From IMG/VR virus record IMGVR_UViG_2698536610_000001: a DNA stretch of 47,772 nucleotides; one strand, written 5' to 3'. Below, one piece after another: positions 6,249-20,898 of this stretch (the first letter of the stretch is position 1; each line of letters opens with the position of its first letter). The stretch comes from a virus. Its lineage: Duplodnaviria; Heunggongvirae; Uroviricota; Caudoviricetes. The notes beneath the pieces were generated by a model. The model was not told the origin of the DNA, made no database searches, and saw nothing but the letters and a program-made list of their open reading frames with translations. The translations under genes and the position numbers were made by a program.

Positions 6249-6277
6249 TTGACTATGTTTTTGTTAACATCTATTTT
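6249..6277 (+). promoter_or_regulatory. Putative rightward early promoter for dicC: -35 TTGACT, 17-bp spacer, -10 TATTTT
   Basis: Consensus -35 hexamer; the -10 region is overlapped by the 40-bp perfect palindrome. Confidence 0.45.
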
Positions 6278-6305
6278 GTTAGTCATGACTAACAAAATAG
6301 ATGTT
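6266..6305. promoter_or_regulatory. 40-bp perfect palindrome AACATCTATTTTGTTAGTCA|TGACTAACAAAATAGATGTT with core TTAGTCATGACTAA; putative main operator
   Basis: Read directly; the first 20 nt are the exact reverse complement of the second 20 nt; ends 4 bp before the dicC ATG. Confidence 0.6.
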
Positions 6306-13000: not shown

Positions 13001-14050
13001 GTGCGGGTATTACTTCGACCTGTTCTGGTACCGGAACTCGGGCTGGTGGTCGTTAAGCCGGGCCGTGAATCCATGCCGGTATTCCACAATACCCGGGTAC
13101 TGGTGGAGCCGGAACCGAAAAGCATGCGTAATCTGCCGTCCGGGGTCGTTCCTGCCGTTCGCCAGCCGCTGGTGGAAGACAAAACATTGCTGCCGTTTTT
13201 CAGTAATGCACGGGTAATTCGTACTGCTGGTGGTGCTGGTGCATTGTCTGACTGGCTGTTGCGCCATATTAAATCCTGCCAGTGGCCACACGGCGATTAT
13301 CATCACAGCGAAACCGTTATTCACCGTTATGGTACCGGCGCAATGGTGTTGTGCTGGCACTGCGACAACCAGCTGCGTGACCAGACATCCGAATCACTCG
13401 AGCAACTTGCTCATCAAAACCTGTCAGCATGGATGATTGACGTCATCGGTCACGCAATAAGCGGTACGCAGGAGCGTGAATTATCTCTGGCTGAATTATC
13501 CTGGTGGGCGGTCCGCAATCAGGTGGCGGACGCGCTACCGGAAGCGGTATTACGTCGCTCGCTGGGATTACCAGCGGAAAAAAACTGCTCGGTGTACCGC
13601 GAAAGCGACATCGTACCGGGAGAGCAGACCGCCACCAGCATATTGAAACAGCGCACAAAAAATCTTGCACCGTTGCCTCACGCCCACCAGCAACAAAACC
13701 CATCACAGGAAAAGACGGTGGTAAGCATCACCGTTGATCCAGAGTCTCCGGAATCTTTCATGAAGCTGCCTAAACGTCACCGGTGGGTTAAGGAGAAATA
13801 CACACGCTGGGTTAAGACACAGCCGTGTGCTTGCTGCGGTATGCCAGCCGACGATCCGCATCATCTGATTGGTCACGGGCAGGGCGGAATGGGAACCAAA
13901 GCACATGATCTCTTTGTTTTGCCTTTGTGCAGAAAGCATCACGACGAGTTGCATACGGATACCGTGGCATTTGAAGAGAAGTATGGCTCCCAACTGGAGC
14001 TGATTTTTCGATTTATCGATCGCGCGCTGGCAATTGGTGTGCTGGCCTAA
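13001..14050 (+). CDS. DUF968 family protein (YdfU-like) with C-terminal Cys/His cluster
   Basis: 349-aa ORF, same length as remembered Qin YdfU; C-terminal [18 protein letters not shown]…CRKHHDELH suggests an HNH/zinc-finger-like motif; GTG start assumed. Confidence 0.65.
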
Positions 14051-14067
14051 TTTTGTGGAGTAAGTTG

Positions 14068-14445
14068 ATGCGTGATATTCAGATGGTTCTTGAGCGTTGG
14101 GGGGCATGGGCGGCTAATAATCATGAAGATGTGACCTGGTCGTCCATTGCCGCCGGTTTTAAGGGATTAATTCCTTCAAAAGTAAGATCTCGTCCGCAAT
14201 GCTGTGACGATGACGCGATGATCATTTGTGAATGTATGGCTCGCCTGAAAAAAAACAACAGCGATTTACATGATTTATTGGTGGACTATTATGTCGGCGG
14301 CATGACTTTTATGGCGCTTGCACGTAAGCATGGGCGATCTGATTGTTGGGTTGGCAGGATGCTCCAGAAAGCTGAGGGCGTAGTGGAGGGCATGCTGATG
14401 GTGTTGGATCTCCGATTGGAGATGGATGCTGATTGTTCGAAATAA
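14068..14445 (+). CDS. Late-gene antiterminator Q (small QuuD/phage-82-type)
   Basis: [26 protein letters not shown]…; about 125 aa; followed by a strong intrinsic terminator (tR' analogue). Confidence 0.65.
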
Positions 14446-14543
14446 TTAAAGGAAAAGTTGCTGTCTGATTTTCATTAGTCTAACATTTTAAATGTTGGAA
14501 TCGCAACGTAGTTATTATCATATAACAGCTTGTTTCCTGATTT

Positions 14544-14572
14544 AGCCAGCCTCCCCAAAGGCTGGTTTTTTT
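14544..14572 (+). terminator. Intrinsic terminator, tR'-like, downstream of Q
   Basis: AGCCAGCCT-CCCCAA-AGGCTGG followed by TTTTTTT. Confidence 0.6.
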
Positions 14573-14600
14573 CTAATAAGTATCATTTCGGGTGGGGATT

Positions 14601-15125
14601 TTATTGTTTAACCCATAATAGTTCATTGACATTGAATCCCAACTTTTGAGCGGTACGCACATAGTCTGCTTTTACATTATCTGGAATAGTTTGGGTCCTT
14701 GCCAGAATCCATAGGTATTCTCTGTTCGGACCACTGACAAGAGCATACTTATACTCATCATCCAGTTTGATTACATTATAGCCACCATAGAAGGGGCCAA
14801 AAAACGAAACTTTCAACGCTGCAGTTTTAGTATCTCCAGTAAAGTATGCTTTACCTTCGCTCTCGCTCCATTTGTTTTTCGTTGGATCGTATCCACGGTT
14901 AAGTACGCGAATCCCTCCGTCGTTCCGTTTTTCATAAGTAGCGCTGACCTGTTCCAGACCACGTTCGAACCAGTTCTCGAGGCGAGCTATTTCATACCAT
15001 TTTCCGAGGTAGCGGTTGGCGTCAAAATTTGTAATCGGCTGCACACCTTTAGGTGGTGTCGGGGCCTTACATGCTATAAGAGTGAAAGAGAGTGCAATGC
15101 CAGTCAACACAGGCCATAACTTCAT
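14601..15125 (-). CDS. Bacterial lipocalin (Blc-like outer-membrane lipoprotein), prophage cargo
   Basis: 174-aa ORF; signal peptide with lipobox LIAC; lipocalin motifs …RYLGKWYEIARLENWFERGLE… and KVSFFGPFYGGYNVI match remembered Blc closely. Confidence 0.85.
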   Translation of the reverse strand: MKLWPVLTGIALSFTLIACKAPTPPKGVQPITNFDANRYLGKWYEIARLENWFERGLEQVSATYEKRNDGGIRVLNRGYDPTKNKWSESEGKAYFTGDTKTAALKVSFFGPFYGGYNVIKLDDEYKYALVSGPNREYLWILARTQTIPDNVKADYVRTAQKLGFNVNELLWVKQ

Positions 15126-15317
15126 AATAAATCCTGTACTTTTGATAGTTGAGAGTAAGTATGAAAGATAGATGAGTACGACCGATCACTTAAAGAACTT
15201 TCCTACTATATTAGGAATAGTCAATAACAGAAAAATTGTCAGTGATGAAGCCAGAAAGGCAATTTAGTCCGTGCACTACAAAGTTTATGTGTTAATGAAT
15301 TAATCAAGGGGGAGGAA

Positions 15318-16277
15318 ATGATAAAAAAACCTGTGATTGGGATCAGCGGTTGTTTGGGCGGTTCTGCTGTTCGTTTTGATGGTGGTCACAAAAGAGATGA
15401 CTTTTTAATGGACAAATTAGTGGAATGGGTAACATTCAGACCAGTATGTCCGGAAATGGCTATAGGGCTGCCAGTTCCGCGTCCTGCTCTACGACTTGTG
15501 CGCTCGAAGCAAGGAAATATACGGATGTGTTTCAGTCACGACCAGAATGAGGATGTGACAGAGAGAATGACAGAGTTTAGTCGTTCTTATATGGACAAAT
15601 TAAAGGATGTATCGGGGTTTGTGGTTTGTGCTAAATCTCCCAGCTGTGGCATGGAGCGCGTGCGTGTCTATGATGAAAATGGTAATCGAGGTCGTAAAGA
15701 TGGAGTGGGACTATTTACGAGCACTTTGATGGAAAAGTTTTCCTGGCTACCGGTTGAAGAGGATGGGCGATTACATGATCCAGTGCTTCGTGAGAATTTT
15801 ATTGAAAGAGTTTTTGCTTTGCATGAGCTCAATCACCTTTACAAGGAGAAATTATCAAGAAGAGAGTTATTAGCTTTTCATAGTCGTTATAAGCTTCAGT
15901 TGTTGGCGCATAGCCAGGCAGGCTATAAAGATATGGGACCATTTGTGGCTGCAATACACGAGTGGGCGGACCTTGAATCATACTTTGAGGTGTATCGTGA
16001 TAATCTGATGGCGATTCTCAGAAAACCAGCATCACGTAAAAATCACACGAATGTGCTGATGCATATACAGGGGTATTTTAGTAATTACTTAAGTACACGC
16101 CAGCGTAAAGAGTTGAGCGAGGTTATACTTAACTATCGTTCTGGCACATTGCCTCTTCTTGCGCCGTTGACTCTGCTGAAGCATTATCTGGGTGAGTATC
16201 CTAATGATTACTTGCTTACACAGAATTACTTCGATCCCTATCCGGAAGAACTGGCTTTAAGGCTGATGGTGAATTAA
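15318..16277 (+). CDS. DUF523/DUF1722 (YbbK/YbgA-like) fusion protein, prophage cargo
   Basis: 319-aa ORF; N-terminal VIGISGCLGG…CPE and C-terminal helical domain resemble the YbgA-type family; assignment from memory. Confidence 0.55.
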   Translation: MIKKPVIGISGCLGGSAVRFDGGHKRDDFLMDKLVEWVTFRPVCPEMAIGLPVPRPALRLVRSKQGNIRMCFSHDQNEDVTERMTEFSRSYMDKLKDVSGFVVCAKSPSCGMERVRVYDENGNRGRKDGVGLFTSTLMEKFSWLPVEEDGRLHDPVLRENFIERVFALHELNHLYKEKLSRRELLAFHSRYKLQLLAHSQAGYKDMGPFVAAIHEWADLESYFEVYRDNLMAILRKPASRKNHTNVLMHIQGYFSNYLSTRQRKELSEVILNYRSGTLPLLAPLTLLKHYLGEYPNDYLLTQNYFDPYPEELALRLMVN

Positions 16278-16756
16278 CTGTATGCGATATCATCTGAAAG
16301 TGATGAGTTCCTGCATGCAGGATATTTACAATCGTAAAAACTACACTATGATACCCATAGTGTCAGTTTGTATAAAAATCCTGTTCACGCTGAAGAAAAT
16401 ATTGAGATGCAATTTAATGTTGGTAAATATACCAGCCCCAAAATATTTTATTCAATCTGTTTTTATATAAAGATATTTCAAGTGAATATTAAGAGCATAT
16501 AATATTATTATTGCACGCAGCTATTATAATATAACAGATTAGTTTAATGATTTTTTGCGAGTTAAACACATGCTTTTATAGTTGTGATGCAATGAGATTT
16601 TCCTTATTGTTGAACTGGCGAATATTGATTATCCACCTATACTTACCTGGTGTAACCCCAATGATATCAGGTGGATAATATGCCATACATATGTTCTATG
16701 GTGATGCCTCTAATTAGTTGAATCTGATGTATAATACGGGCTTTTGAGGTTATCTC

Positions 16757-17029
16757 ATGGCCAGAGTTAATATTCATTGTCCCCGTTGTCAGTCAGCTCA
16801 GGTTTACCGCCATGGTCAGAACCCTAAAGGCCGTGACAGATTTCGCTGCCGTGACTGCCACCGTGTGTTTCAGCTCACTTATACTTATCAAGCACGTAAG
16901 CCGGGTATGAAAGAGCTGATAACTGAAATGGCCTTTAATGGTGCCGGGGTTCGCGATACCGCCAGGACAATGAAAATTGGTATTAACACCGTCATCCGGA
17001 CTTTAAAAAACTCGCGCCAAAGCGAATAA
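16757..17029 (+). CDS. insA: IS1 InsA (transposition regulator / N-terminal part of InsAB')
   Basis: MARVNIHCPRCQSAQVYRHGQNPKGRDRFRCRDCHRVFQLTYTYQ… with zinc-finger and HTH as in IS1 InsA. Confidence 0.85.
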   Translation: MARVNIHCPRCQSAQVYRHGQNPKGRDRFRCRDCHRVFQLTYTYQARKPGMKELITEMAFNGAGVRDTARTMKIGINTVIRTLKNSRQSE

Positions 17030-17451
17030 CTTCTTCGCCTGTTGCCCATGCTGATGTGGCGCTTATCTGCGAGCTTGATGAGCAATAGAGCTACGTTGGC
17101 AGTAAAGCCCGGCAACACTGGCTCTGGTACGCGTACAACACCAAAACAGGCGGTGTACTGGCCTACACTTTTGGTCCCCGAACCGATCAAACGTGCCGGG
17201 AGCTACTGGCACTGCTTACACCCTTCAACATCGGCATGCTGACCAGCGATGACTGGGGCAGCTATGGCCGGGAGGTGCCGAAGAATAAGCATCTGACCGG
17301 CAAAATATTCACCCAACGCATTGAGCGTAATAATCTGACGCTACGCACCCGCATTAAGCGGTTGGCTCGTAAAATAATCTGCTTCTCACGCTCAGTTGAG
17401 ATCCACGAAAAAGTGATCGGAGCGTTTATCGAAAAACACATGTTCTACTAA
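17030..17451 (+). pseudogene. insB: IS1 insB frame interrupted by an in-frame amber codon
   Basis: The InsB frame (-1 relative to insA) reads …ALICELDEQ*SYVGSKARQHWLWYAYN…; TAG at 17086-17088 replaces the Trp of the remembered DEQWGYVG motif; the distal part (17236-17451) is intact. Confidence 0.55.
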
Positions 17452-17470
17452 TTGGATGCACTACCATCAC

Positions 17471-17847
17471 TTGCATGTCTTGCTATCTTATCTTCAGAGA
17501 AAATAGTGCAAAGGTTTTTATTTGGGTGTCTTAATAGTTTAGGAAGTAAAGTTAAGGCTATTATCCACAAGGATATATCTGCAACATGGAGACTTTGTGA
17601 TATATCTTCAAGACTGTGCCTGAGTGAAAGTTTGTTAAAAAGAAAATTAAAACACGAAGGCTTATCATTTGGTAAACTAAATCTTGAAGAGCGAATGGTG
17701 ATGGCGGAAAGCTTATTAAGCTACAATTTATATTCTGTTGGGAAAGTTGCTGAGATATGCGGTTATGAAAATACGTCATATTTTGTAAGTGTTTTCAGAA
17801 GATATTTTGGTGTTCCTCTCCACAAATATTCATCAAGATTTTTTTAG
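17471..17847 (+). pseudogene. AraC-family regulator, C-terminal HTH fragment (5' end replaced by IS1)
   Basis: The ORF reads out of the IS1 right end; only an AraC-type HTH domain of about 125 aa remains (…YENTSYFVSVFRRYFGVPLHKY…); AT-rich. Confidence 0.5.
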
Positions 17848-18053
17848 AAAAACACATGATGTAACGTGATGCGATTTAATGATTTTGTAATTTTCGTATT
17901 TGATAATTTTATGATGCTTTCAGCTACGCCAGAATAATCGCTGGCGTTTTTCTTTTTGAATAGATGTTCAGGCCTTACGCTAATGTAACTTCTATACCTT
18001 TCCCTCTTCGTTCCGAACCGTGTACACCATCCGTTATTTGCGGAGGTGAGGCT

Positions 18054-18269
18054 ATGAAATCCATGGACAAGTTAACAACGGGCATTGCCTACGGCACCTC
18101 CGCAGGCAGTGCTGGCTACTGGTTTTTACAGTGGCTTGATCAGGTCAGTCCATCACAGTGGGCTGCTATTGGTGTGCTGGGAAGTCTGGTTCTGGGCTTT
18201 CTGACTTACCTGACGAATCTGTACTTCAAAATAAGAGAAGACAAGCGTAAAGCTGCGCGGGGAGAGTAA
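18054..18269 (+). CDS. Class II holin (phage 21 S-type pinholin) with dual-start motif
   Basis: [71 protein letters not shown]; two TM segments; GGAGGTGAG Shine-Dalgarno; Met1/Met4 starts. Confidence 0.85.
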
Positions 18270-18273
18270 TTCA

Positions 18274-18618
18274 ATGACTCAAAACTATGAACTGATTGTG
18301 AAAGGGATCCGCAATTTTGAGAATAAAGTTACGGTAACTTTAGCGTTACGGGACAAAGAACGCTTTGACGGTGAAATTTTTGACCTGGACATCTCGCTGG
18401 ACCGTGTTGAAGGTGCCGCGCTGGAGTTTTATGAGGCAGCAGCCAGAAGGAGCATCAGACAGGTCTTCCTGGATGTTGCTGCCGGGTTATGTGAAGGGGA
18501 TGAGCTGTCGCCGGAAAAGCGCCCCATAATTTTAGAGGCGCAGAATGTGTGGATAACCTACAAAGGAAAGCTACCGGGAAGAATTACTGGTTCTCTGAAG
18601 ACTCCGCCGAAATGGTAA
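18274..18618 (+). CDS. YdfR-like (DUF1327) protein inserted between holin and endolysin
   Basis: 114-aa ORF starting 5 nt after the holin stop; position and N-terminus match remembered Qin YdfR. Confidence 0.5.
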   Translation: MTQNYELIVKGIRNFENKVTVTLALRDKERFDGEIFDLDISLDRVEGAALEFYEAAARRSIRQVFLDVAAGLCEGDELSPEKRPIILEAQNVWITYKGKLPGRITGSLKTPPKW

Positions 18619-18856
18619 TTTCACCAGCATATTTTTCTTCCAGTAATACCGCCAGCCACTTGAAAGAATTTTGTTGTTGCTGGGACCATTTGGGGTTGAG
18701 TGATTCAAGCTGGAGCGATGCCAGTGTTGGTTGCATTTGTTCCTTGGGAATTGAGAATGCCAGATATGAAAATGCGACAGTAAGGGCATTTACATCATCC
18801 CGAAGCTTGGAAATGCAGTCGAGCAACTCCTGTAGAGAAATGGTGCTATTGTCCAT
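18584..18856 (-). CDS. Hypothetical 90-aa protein, antisense within the lysis cassette
   Basis: ATG preceded by a strong SD (AGAGAGGA, about 6 nt); convergent with and overlapping the ydfR-like 3' end by about 35 nt; no family recognised. Confidence 0.35.
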   Translation of the reverse strand: MDNSTISLQELLDCISKLRDDVNALTVAFSYLAFSIPKEQMQPTLASLQLESLNPKWSQQQQNSFKWLAVLLEEKYAGEITISAESSENQ

Positions 18857-18961
18857 AAACAATCCTCTCTATTGTATTTAACTATTCCTTGCCTGATTCA
18901 ACAGGCCGGGACAGATAAACATATCCAGGGTTCAGAAACCGATAAATCCTGATAAATATCC

Positions 18962-19504
18962 ATGAACGTAAAAATCAGATACGGCCTGTCGGCTGCCGTT
19001 CTGGCACTGATTGCCGTCGGTGCGCCTGCGCCTGATATTCTCGACCAGTTTCTGAATGAAAAAGAAGGTAACCACACAACGGCATACCGCGATGGTTCCG
19101 GCATCTGGACCATCTGTCGGGGTGCCACGGTGGTGGATGGAAAACCCGTTTTTCCCGGTATGAAACTGTCGAAGGAAAAATGCGACCAGGTTAACGCCAT
19201 TGAACGGGATAAGGCGCTGGCATGGGTGGAGCGCAATATTAAAGTGCCACTGACCGAACCACAGAAAGCGGGTATAGCGTCATTTTGTCCCTATAACATT
19301 GGCCCCGGTAAGTGTTTCCCGTCGACGTTTTATAAGCGGCTGAATGCCGATGATCGTAAGGGGGCATGCGAGGCGATTCGCTGGTGGATAAAAGATGGTG
19401 GGCGTGATTGCCGCCTGACAAAAGGGCAGAAGAATGGCTGTTATGGGCAGGTCGAGCGGCGCGATCAGGAAAGCGCACTGGCGTGCTGGGGGCTGGAGCA
19501 ATGA
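18962..19504 (+). CDS. SAR endolysin (T4-lysozyme-like, phage 21 R-type)
   Basis: N-terminal Ala/Gly-rich signal-anchor (LSAAVLALIAVGAPAP); catalytic E-x8-D-x5-T triad in NEKEGNHTTAYRDGSGIWTICRG. Confidence 0.85.
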   Translation: MNVKIRYGLSAAVLALIAVGAPAPDILDQFLNEKEGNHTTAYRDGSGIWTICRGATVVDGKPVFPGMKLSKEKCDQVNAIERDKALAWVERNIKVPLTEPQKAGIASFCPYNIGPGKCFPSTFYKRLNADDRKGACEAIRWWIKDGGRDCRLTKGQKNGCYGQVERRDQESALACWGLEQ

Positions 19505-20037
19505 AAATTAATCCGGATCTTATAGGCGTTGTCGTTATTGCTGGCCTTTCGGTCGCTCTCGTCAAGAGTTGCTCTCACGCCAGTAATCTTCAGAGCGATA
19601 ACGACGTTCTGCGAAGTGACAACTCTATGCTGGGGCAGGTAATCGCCACCCAGGCATTCAACTTCAATCGATTCAATCAGGTTGCAGAACATGCCAACAG
19701 TCTTAACTCCCTGATCGACACCAGCACCGAAAAAACCGTAATCGAATACCGGGAGATTCTCCGCCGTGAAAAAACCTGTGATCTGCCTGTTCCTGCTGAT
19801 ATCGCTGGTGGGTTGCTCGAATACACGTACCGTTTACGTGCCAGCGCCATGCACACCGATACCGGCAGACCTAATGAAGCCTATGATCGTACCGCTACCA
19901 CCAGCTCAATGACCTACTGCCAAGCTGTCTTGTGGATTAAGCCGCTACTGGCGTTGATAGAAAAAGGAAATAATAATTTTTCGAGTATTCGTGAAATTGA
20001 TGAGTTGCGTTACAGACCATCTGAGCATGGCCAGTAA
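19501..20037 (+). CDS. Rz i-spanin
   Basis: ATG overlaps the endolysin stop; N-terminal TM (LIGVVVIAGLSVALV) then helical periplasmic domain; embedded Rz1 frame. Confidence 0.8.
   Translation: MKINPDLIGVVVIAGLSVALVKSCSHASNLQSDNDVLRSDNSMLGQVIATQAFNFNRFNQVAEHANSLNSLIDTSTEKTVIEYREILRREKTCDLPVPADIAGGLLEYTYRLRASAMHTDTGRPNEAYDRTATTSSMTYCQAVLWIKPLLALIEKGNNNFSSIREIDELRYRPSEHGQ
19766..19912 (+). CDS. Rz1 o-spanin lipoprotein, embedded in the +1 frame of Rz
   Basis: Hand translation: (GTG)KKPVICLFLLISLVGCSNTRTVYVPAPCTPIPADLMKPMIVPLPPAQ; lipobox LVGC; Pro-rich; GGGAG SD 10 nt upstream. Confidence 0.7.
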   Translation: MKKPVICLFLLISLVGCSNTRTVYVPAPCTPIPADLMKPMIVPLPPAQ

Positions 20038-20111
20038 GGTTGCAGGAAATTTAAAATCTGGCGATGAAATTTAATATTAGAAATTCATTGCCTAGTGAGA
20101 TTAATAATGGG

Positions 20112-20157
20112 CATCCCTTTGTGACGATAAGCTTTAACACATTCACAAAGGGATATT
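20112..20157. terminator. 12-bp perfect inverted repeat between convergent Rz and the 230-aa gene (possible terminator)
   Basis: ATCCCTTTGTGA…(loop)…TCACAAAGGGAT; no clean U-tract, so terminator function is uncertain. Confidence 0.35.
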
Positions 20158-20205
20158 TAATATAGGGTGGTTAATTCCCACTTGCTGTGGTGTTTAGGGG
20201 GTAAT

Positions 20206-20898
20206 TCAAATCTTATCTAACTCATTATAGGCTTCGATAATAAAAATTCTGATTTTAATAAGGCATGATTCAATGAAAGGAATTACTTCATGGTCATTCC
20301 CATGGAATCTTATTTTTTTCTCTTCGGTAATGACTATGTTTAAAGGTACACCATTACCACTTCTTTGTAATTTCCCATTTTCGAAAGTAAAGTCTTCTAA
20401 TTTTTTGCCATTGATGTGGTTGTTTTTAAAGAGAATTTTTGCTGAGCTTCCTGCTGTGATTAAACCAAAACCATCTACGCTCACACTTAGGTCTTTAACA
20501 GAACTCTCTTCTCTTAAGGGGATTGGTTGTCTGTGCTTTACTTCATTAGTGAGATTACACATCATTTCCAACCAAGATTCGCCAGTGTGATAATCCTGTA
20601 TAGAAGTAAAAATTTTATATAATGGAGAAGATGATGGTGGGTTTATTTTTAGCGTCTTTGAGAAAAATTTATCAATAAACTCTTTTTTTCCGTAAGGGAA
20701 ATATATTTTGGGGCGCTCATCATTACTGCGTGGAGAAATATATTTATCATAGGTATCATTAGCGAGATACTCTAAGGAACTTCGTAAGTTTTCCAAAATA
20801 GCTTTGACTTTTACAGGCTTGATATGCTGTGTCTGTCTCATTATGTCAAGACTTTCTTCAACTTCTTGCAATAAGTCTAACGAGCCTTCTCTAGACAT
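20206..20898 (-). CDS. Hypothetical 230-aa protein in an AT-rich island (moron)
   Basis: Long ORF in strongly AT-rich DNA where chance ORFs are unlikely; opposite to phage late transcription, in the position lambda uses for bor; no motif recognised. Confidence 0.6.
   Translation of the reverse strand: MSREGSLDLLQEVEESLDIMRQTQHIKPVKVKAILENLRSSLEYLANDTYDKYISPRSNDERPKIYFPYGKKEFIDKFFSKTLKINPPSSSPLYKIFTSIQDYHTGESWLEMMCNLTNEVKHRQPIPLREESSVKDLSVSVDGFGLITAGSSAKILFKNNHINGKKLEDFTFENGKLQRSGNGVPLNIVITEEKKIRFHGNDHEVIPFIESCLIKIRIFIIEAYNELDKI

Follow-up and report, generated by a model that had tools for sequence, protein, structure and literature searches.

A defective ISEc30/IS1N-like insertion sequence within an internally deleted AraC-like cargo gene of a lambdoid prophage

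The locus described here raises two linked questions: whether the IS1-type element that it carries can still transpose, and what has become of the regulatory gene in which the element lies. It is located in a Caudoviricetes sequence of 47,772 nucleotides (IMG/VR record IMGVR_UViG_2698536610_000001), referred to below as the window, and all coordinates are those of this stretch. A first-pass annotation, made from the sequence alone, had placed an IS1 with an internal amber codon at 16280–17960, next to a 'beheaded' AraC-family regulator. The element is indeed an IS1, with exact ends at 16700 and 17465, and the span given at first takes in its flanks as well.

The insertion sequence and its family

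The ends of the element were set by alignment with three intact sister copies, which are inserted in pstS, sctI and bluF of other E. coli genomes. The window copy is 99.35% identical to them and shows five differences, four of which alter the protein: S3R and L72M in InsA, TGG to TAG at codon 111, and T207I, the remaining one being synonymous. The features of the element are as follows.

16700–17465, + strand: complete 766-bp IS1-family element, defective, of an ISEc30/IS1N-like isoform, delimited by alignment with the three intact sister copies
16700–16722, + strand: left terminal inverted repeat (IRL), GGTGATGCCTCTAATTAGTTGAA, identical in the intact copies
16757–17029, + strand: insA, an intact 90-codon reading frame taken from the ORF list (Zn_ribbon_InsA, 71 bits; HTH_Tnp_IS1, 94.6 bits)
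17002–17011, + strand: programmed −1 frameshift motif TTTAAAAAAC (A6C), intact
17008–17451, + strand: insB' frame, encoding the DDE catalytic portion of InsAB' and broken by the amber codon, as read from the frameshifted translation (DDE_Tnp_IS1, 249.9 bits on the repaired protein)
17086–17088, + strand: TAG in place of TGG, changing Trp111 of InsAB' to amber in the motif ELDEQW
17443–17465, + strand: right terminal inverted repeat (IRR), reverse complement GGTAGTGCATCCAATTAGTAGAA, identical in the intact copies

Read from the sequence, IRL agrees with the reverse complement of IRR in 18 of the 23 positions; the right end reads ...CACTACC in the window copy and all three sisters. InsA of IS1 consists of a zinc ribbon and a helix-turn-helix (HTH) and acts as a repressor and an inhibitor of transposition; the insA gene of the window departs from the intact copies by its two substitutions, S3R and L72M. 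A −1 frameshift at the A6C motif yields a 231-codon InsAB' frame colinear with those of the intact copies. The AT-rich flanks mentioned in the first-pass annotation are evident in the base composition, GC content being 25–31% to the left (16300–16700) and 31–33% to the right (17500–18000), against 46–57% inside the element.

Family membership was assessed with a 231-aa InsAB' protein rebuilt by the −1 frameshift, with Trp restored at the stop codon. This protein scored 260.9 bits against the NCBIfam model transpos_IS1 (NF033558; cut-off 100) and exceeded the gathering scores of three Pfam families, PF03811 (71 bits), PF12759 (94.6 bits) and PF03400 (249.9 bits), that is, of Zn_ribbon_InsA, HTH_Tnp_IS1 and DDE_Tnp_IS1. 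The hallmarks of the family are thus present: an InsA zinc ribbon and HTH together with the DDE_Tnp_IS1 domain, two frames joined at A6C, terminal repeats and, around the sister copies, 8-bp duplications. An uninterrupted InsAB' frame running through the DDE residues, which characterizes an autonomous active copy, is broken by TAG at codon 111. Judged by these sequence features, the window copy is a member of the IS1 family, but a defective one. Alignment to IS1 isoforms, the check proposed with the first-pass annotation, confirmed the family, the ends and the nonsense change alike.

The nearest named relative is ISEc30, whose InsAB' is 95% identical in amino acids to that of the window element, followed by IS1N of Shigella dysenteriae (94%), the isoform name resting on NCBI protein names; unnamed copies of E. 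coli and E. albertii are 97–98% identical. ISEc30 and IS1N share with the window element the order insA, A6C frameshift, insB' and inverted repeats of about 23 bp starting with GGT. The window copy differs from them by the W111 amber codon, three more amino-acid changes and the lack of a target duplication. IS1A of K-12 and IS1X2 belong to the same family and have the same gene layout, with a DEQW motif carrying Trp at the mutated position, but their InsB is only 41–42% identical to that of the window element. Canonical IS1 measures 768 bp, as against 766 bp here, and its inverted-repeat sequences are different. By sequence comparison the element is therefore best described as belonging to the IS1N/ISEc30 branch, not as the textbook IS1 of K-12. 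No second copy of it was detected within the window by blastn.

Each of the three sister copies is flanked by an 8-bp target duplication (ATCATTCC, ATCATTAT and AACAAATC). The window copy has none, the flanking 8-mers being different (tgttctat on the left, atcacttg on the right); this is due to the adjacent 312-bp deletion described below and reflects the history of the copy, not a property of the element. The target duplications of two of the three sisters (L003 and L004) begin with ATCATT, and the right flank of the window copy (17466–17473) begins with ATCACT. This likeness may point to a preference of the isoform for certain target sites.

Deletion within the AraC-like gene

A search with the surrounding 4.2 kb found many genomes that carry the same segment without the IS. 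In two of these, CFSAN061769 (allele L002) and T2 (allele L006), the gene is intact and encodes 237 or 243 aa. Alignment with these alleles shows that 312 bp (4405–4716 of L002, codons 8–111) are missing from the window exactly at the IS, both edges of the deletion coinciding with the two ends of the element. What is left of the gene lies on either side.

16680–16699, + strand: 5' remnant of the AraC-like gene, ATG plus 17 nt (M P Y I C S I...), recognised by aligning the window with L006 and L002, which lack the IS
17467–17847, + strand: 3' remnant of the AraC-like gene, 126 codons and the stop codon, with the double HTH domain, from alignment with IS-less alleles

The window sequence picks up at 17466, directly right of the IS, and the 3' remnant corresponds to residues ~112–237. 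It matches Pfam HTH_18 with 46.3 bits (cut-off 33.6) and HTH_AraC with 41.8 bits (cut-off 26.6). The C-terminal double HTH of AraC/XylS proteins is therefore present, and a complete protein with an N-terminal companion domain is absent. The NCBI pipeline PGAP describes the gene in two genomes inspected, PK8566 and MY203L1, as 'helix-turn-helix domain-containing protein; incomplete; missing N-terminus'. That the right end of the IS adjoins the C-terminal HTH domain of an AraC-type regulator was thus rightly recognised at the outset. The description of the gene as beheaded, with its N-terminal half missing, holds as regards a loss next to the IS but is only roughly correct, as the ATG, with the first 20 nt, is kept. 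In the window, the regulator and transposase genes alike are pseudogenes, and PGAP independently classes both as such in PK8566 and MY203L1, two of the nine genomes with the TAG-bearing allele.

The first-pass annotation had also considered the arrangement consistent with an IS1-mediated deletion and had suggested a comparison with related prophages lacking the IS. The comparison provided the intact alleles from which the 312-bp loss was read, and the footprint, loss of sequence next to the IS and no target duplication, is the one expected. Adjacent deletion is a classical outcome of IS1 activity. As in the deletions described at gal and chl, the window keeps an IS end at the new junction, whereas the neighbouring DNA and the target duplication are gone; the mechanism in our case is read from the footprint, and recombination between two IS copies leaves the same one.

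Such recombination, between two separate IS1 insertions in the gene in the same orientation, would be an unlikely but not negligible source of the loss. Its end product would be identical, a single IS between flanks that do not match each other, the DNA between the two copies having gone, and other E. coli genomes contain up to 44 places matching the isoform. It would require two independent hits within 320 bp, however, and the classical status of adjacent deletion also counts against it. An intermediate allele, carrying the IS with its 8-bp duplication in an undeleted gene, was not found at either junction among the 5,426 genomes. This tells against two successive insertions, and for the same reason the direction and the mechanism of the deletion are ones that we infer. 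Adjacent deletion, by intramolecular transposition from one end of the element, would be the more probable source.

A different consequence of the rearrangement might be that the IS converted the regulator into a protein without its companion domain, active constitutively as a DNA-binding protein in the manner of MarA. MarA and SoxS illustrate that the AraC DNA-binding domain can act alone, and a 131-codon frame (17452–17847) covers the whole double HTH, starting from a TTG in the right end of the IS. This TTG directly follows the insB' stop codon TAA (17449–17454 for the two together) and is in frame with insB', a coincidence that has a one-in-three chance. No Shine-Dalgarno sequence precedes the TTG, however, and no promoter was predicted on the + strand of the IS right end. 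The allele is moreover rare: of the ~1,030 genomes that have the gene, 9 contain it, a distribution that gives no hint of selection. We therefore regard a functional product of this frame as very unlikely.

The regulator, its leader and its prophage neighbours

Intact alleles of the gene carry the AraC double HTH according to Pfam, and their best NCBIfam model is YdeO (NF007407), with 127.2 and 108.1 bits against a cut-off of 348, followed by GadX, HilD and HilC. The gene is not a YdeO orthologue, since a score of 127 bits lies below the curated cut-off. Over 235 residues, the product of the intact gene shares 54% identity with that of ECs_0287, the AraC-like gene located at the end of the Sp1 prophage in O157:H7 Sakai. 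We take ECs_0287 to be the probable orthologue of PatE from its position in Sp1, because patE (z0321) has been located on O-island OI-8 (PMC10877973); a literature search on ECs0287 brought no confirmation of this identity. The level of identity points to a paralogue of the probable PatE.

In O157:H7, the AraC-like proteins PatE, PsrA and PsrB (z0321, z1789 and z2104) are encoded by prophages and regulate acid resistance and type III secretion (PMC10877973), activation of gadE/hdeA being a mark of this group. The parent gene of the window resembles these proteins, as well as AppY and YdeO of K-12, in its size range (237–247 aa), its AT-richness, its C-terminal AraC double HTH and its location on a lambdoid prophage. 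It differs from this group in being without a name and, in the window, destroyed. The search for homologues that had been recommended for naming the parent gene returned generic names only; the placement near YdeO and the probable PatE comes from the NCBIfam models and the comparison with ECs_0287.

Homologues with at least 80% nucleotide identity occur in ~1,030 of the 5,426 genomes. Alleles at least 99% identical to that of the window number only nine, all of them 100% identical and all nine carrying the IS. Intact versions are also found in viable lambdoid phages: IdasGreatGrand has a gene whose product is 98.8% identical in amino acids, and 1H12 and Lambda_2E9 have one at 82%, the three phages sharing the arrangement Q, blc, ybgA, regulator and holin. 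Taken together, these comparisons show that the parent gene is an unnamed but widespread cargo regulator of phages, belonging to the YdeO/probable-PatE group.

The leader of the gene contains an inverted repeat, and a second hairpin follows the coding sequence.

16628–16679, + strand: leader stem-loop of the AraC-like gene, with perfect 11-bp arms at 16628–16638 and 16669–16679
17926–17957, + strand: terminator-like GC hairpin (ACGCCAG...CTGGCGT) with a T-run after it, TTTTTCTTTTT, located past the end of the AraC-like gene and upstream of the holin gene

The leader repeat had been noticed as a 10-bp inverted repeat just left of the element. It is real, but its arms measure 11 bp and it forms part of the leader of the regulator. 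It could not be retained as an IS end or another IS-related feature: it lies 20 bp outside the IS and was found in every IS-less allele examined, with one mismatch in the left arm (ATTTTCCACCT), the perfect 11-bp form being due to a T-to-A change seen only in the lineage of the window. The right arm, AGGTGGATAAT, which stops 1 nt short of the ATG, comprises the Shine-Dalgarno sequence and the spacer for the regulator gene; the stem pairs UCCACCU with the Shine-Dalgarno AGGUGGA, 1–5 nt upstream of the ATG.

An 11-mer repeat arises in ~0.7% of shuffles of the 418-bp intergenic region, and the 7-bp core TCCACCT/AGGTGGA is kept in the divergent allele of phage 1H12 (protein 82% identical), in which the loop is changed at many positions. 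Folding z-scores were weak (−1.87 for the window, −0.19 for an intact allele), and a covariation test was powerless on 76 usable leaders from 80 IMG/VR loci that are almost invariant. Upstream of O157 ECs_0287, too, the Shine-Dalgarno sequence folds into a stem. Among virulence regulators of the AraC family, LcrF and ToxT are known to be controlled by RNA thermometers. That the stem-loop might be a translational switch of this YdeO/probable-PatE-like phage regulator, for example an RNA thermometer, is a rather improbable idea. If true, the switch would matter only in the intact alleles, of which WP_001146311.1 is an example and which are present in about a fifth of E. coli genomes, the gene of the window being already destroyed.

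Between Q and the holin gene (14053–18270), the window contains three cargo genes, namely blc (lipocalin; opposite strand), one of the ybgA family and the gene for the AraC-like regulator. The corresponding order in CFSAN061769 and T2 is Q antiterminator, blc (opposite strand), ybgA-family gene, intact HTH gene, holin, ydfR and lysozyme, and the cassette blc-ybgA-regulator is also present in isolated lambdoid phages. The position between Q and the lysis genes is the one occupied by the stx genes in Stx phages. The hairpin at 17926–17957 is conserved in IS-less alleles, and late transcription starting from Q would need to read through it.

PK8566 is 99.6–99.8% identical to the window over the 9.4 kb compared, apart from an extra intact IS1X2 downstream of the lysis genes (L001 8036–8802, corresponding to window ~20325–20334) that is absent from the window. 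IS1-type elements have hit this prophage repeatedly.

An Rfam scan of 14000–20500 with E values up to 1 detected nothing in the span of the IS and the AraC-like gene. Its sole match was a sub-threshold one to RF02278 at 14531–14574, between Q and blc (28.6 bits; gathering score 50), which is probably only a terminator-like hairpin. Elsewhere in the window there are perfect inverted repeats with ~18-bp arms at 6266–6283 and 6288–6305, separated by a 4-nt loop, and with 12-bp arms at 20113–20124 and 20143–20154.

The amber codon and the history of the locus

Codon 111 is TGG in all three intact sister copies. In an alignment of 18 IS1 transposases of 41–98% identity, Trp occupies the mutated column in 15 of the 17 other proteins, IS1A and IS1X2 included, down to 41% identity; the two exceptions are seemingly degenerate single-member entries. 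The initial claim that TAG at 17086–17088 replaces a Trp of IS1 is therefore borne out: the residue is conserved and the element is an IS1. The stop codon falls three residues past the first conserved Asp (D108), which is invariant, and the rest of the DDE_Tnp_IS1 domain is lost. PGAP labels the identical gene of PK8566 and MY203L1 'IS1 family transposase; programmed frameshift; internal stop'.

What InsA, InsAB' and the A6C frameshift do in IS1 has been described, InsAB' being made from less than 2% of transcripts (PMC12903888). The predicted truncated product, 110 of 231 residues, would essentially be an InsA-like DNA-binding protein, retaining the InsA-type zinc ribbon and the HTH and lacking the DDE domain beyond its first conserved Asp. 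With that part of the domain gone, the copy would have lost transposase activity and would be unable to transpose on its own.

The exact 61-mer centred on the TAG is present in nine of the 5,426 complete E. coli genomes, and in all nine at one and the same locus. In another 731 records the isoform is present but departs from this 61-mer at one or more positions, and the best whole-element matches at other loci do not exceed 99.4%, as expected if the copies there show all five differences. The nine carrier genomes mostly have one copy of the ISEc30/IS1N-like isoform each, strains CX08 and CX12 having a second place that matches it. Consequently, transposase might be supplied in trans in some hosts. 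The amber allele is thus real and stably inherited and shows no sign of movement; its confinement to a single locus in nine genomes fits a dead copy that stayed put.

Some transposase activity would be left if the amber codon were read through, naturally or by a suppressor tRNA of the supE type. Amber suppressors do exist in some E. coli strains, and the ends of the element, insA and the frameshift site are all intact. The restriction of the amber allele to one locus and the mostly single isoform copy of its carriers speak against such activity, however. Given the small share of transcripts that give InsAB', inefficient suppression would yield almost no protein, and most suppressor tRNAs would not restore the conserved Trp. 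Readthrough sufficient for transposition is, in our opinion, highly improbable. The idea that the TAG is a sequencing or assembly error in an intact transposase gene, suggested by its being a single-base difference from intact copies, is largely refuted and deserves hardly any credence, as the identical 61-mer recurs in nine independent complete assemblies from different hosts and sources, the internal stop is annotated by PGAP in both assemblies inspected, and the same copy has four other private substitutions.

We consider the following history highly probable as a whole. An ISEc30/IS1N-like element would have transposed into a YdeO/probable-PatE-like gene of the AraC family, a cargo ('moron') gene that a lambdoid prophage of E. 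coli carries between its Q antiterminator gene and its lysis genes. The 312 bp comprising codons 8–111, together with one copy of the 8-bp duplication, would then have been lost by adjacent deletion or by recombination between two copies. A later G-to-A change would have converted Trp111 of InsAB' to amber, leaving a copy unable to transpose alone. The anatomy of the locus, the nonsense change, the conservation of the Trp, the deletion and the restriction of the amber allele to one locus are observed directly; the order of these events, the mechanism of the deletion and the loss of activity are what we infer from them.

Because the ends, insA and the frameshift site are intact, the InsA repressor could still be made, and a cognate transposase supplied in trans could in principle move the copy. 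Immobile IS1 copies have been mobilised by transposase supplied in trans (PMC12903888). On this analysis the window copy would be non-autonomous, yet might be mobilisable in trans.

The locus represents ordinary gene decay, and automated annotation of public genomes with an identical locus has already marked both lesions. Its annotation can now be corrected in three respects: the isoform is ISEc30/IS1N-like, the ends lie at 16700 and 17465, and the regulator gene has suffered an internal deletion, not the loss of its 5' end. The prophage no longer encodes the YdeO/probable-PatE-like regulator, relatives of which govern type III secretion and acid resistance in EHEC (PMC10877973). The amber-bearing copy has kept to one locus in nine sequenced strains, and the locus provides a clear example of how insertion sequences erode the cargo genes of prophages and then decay themselves.
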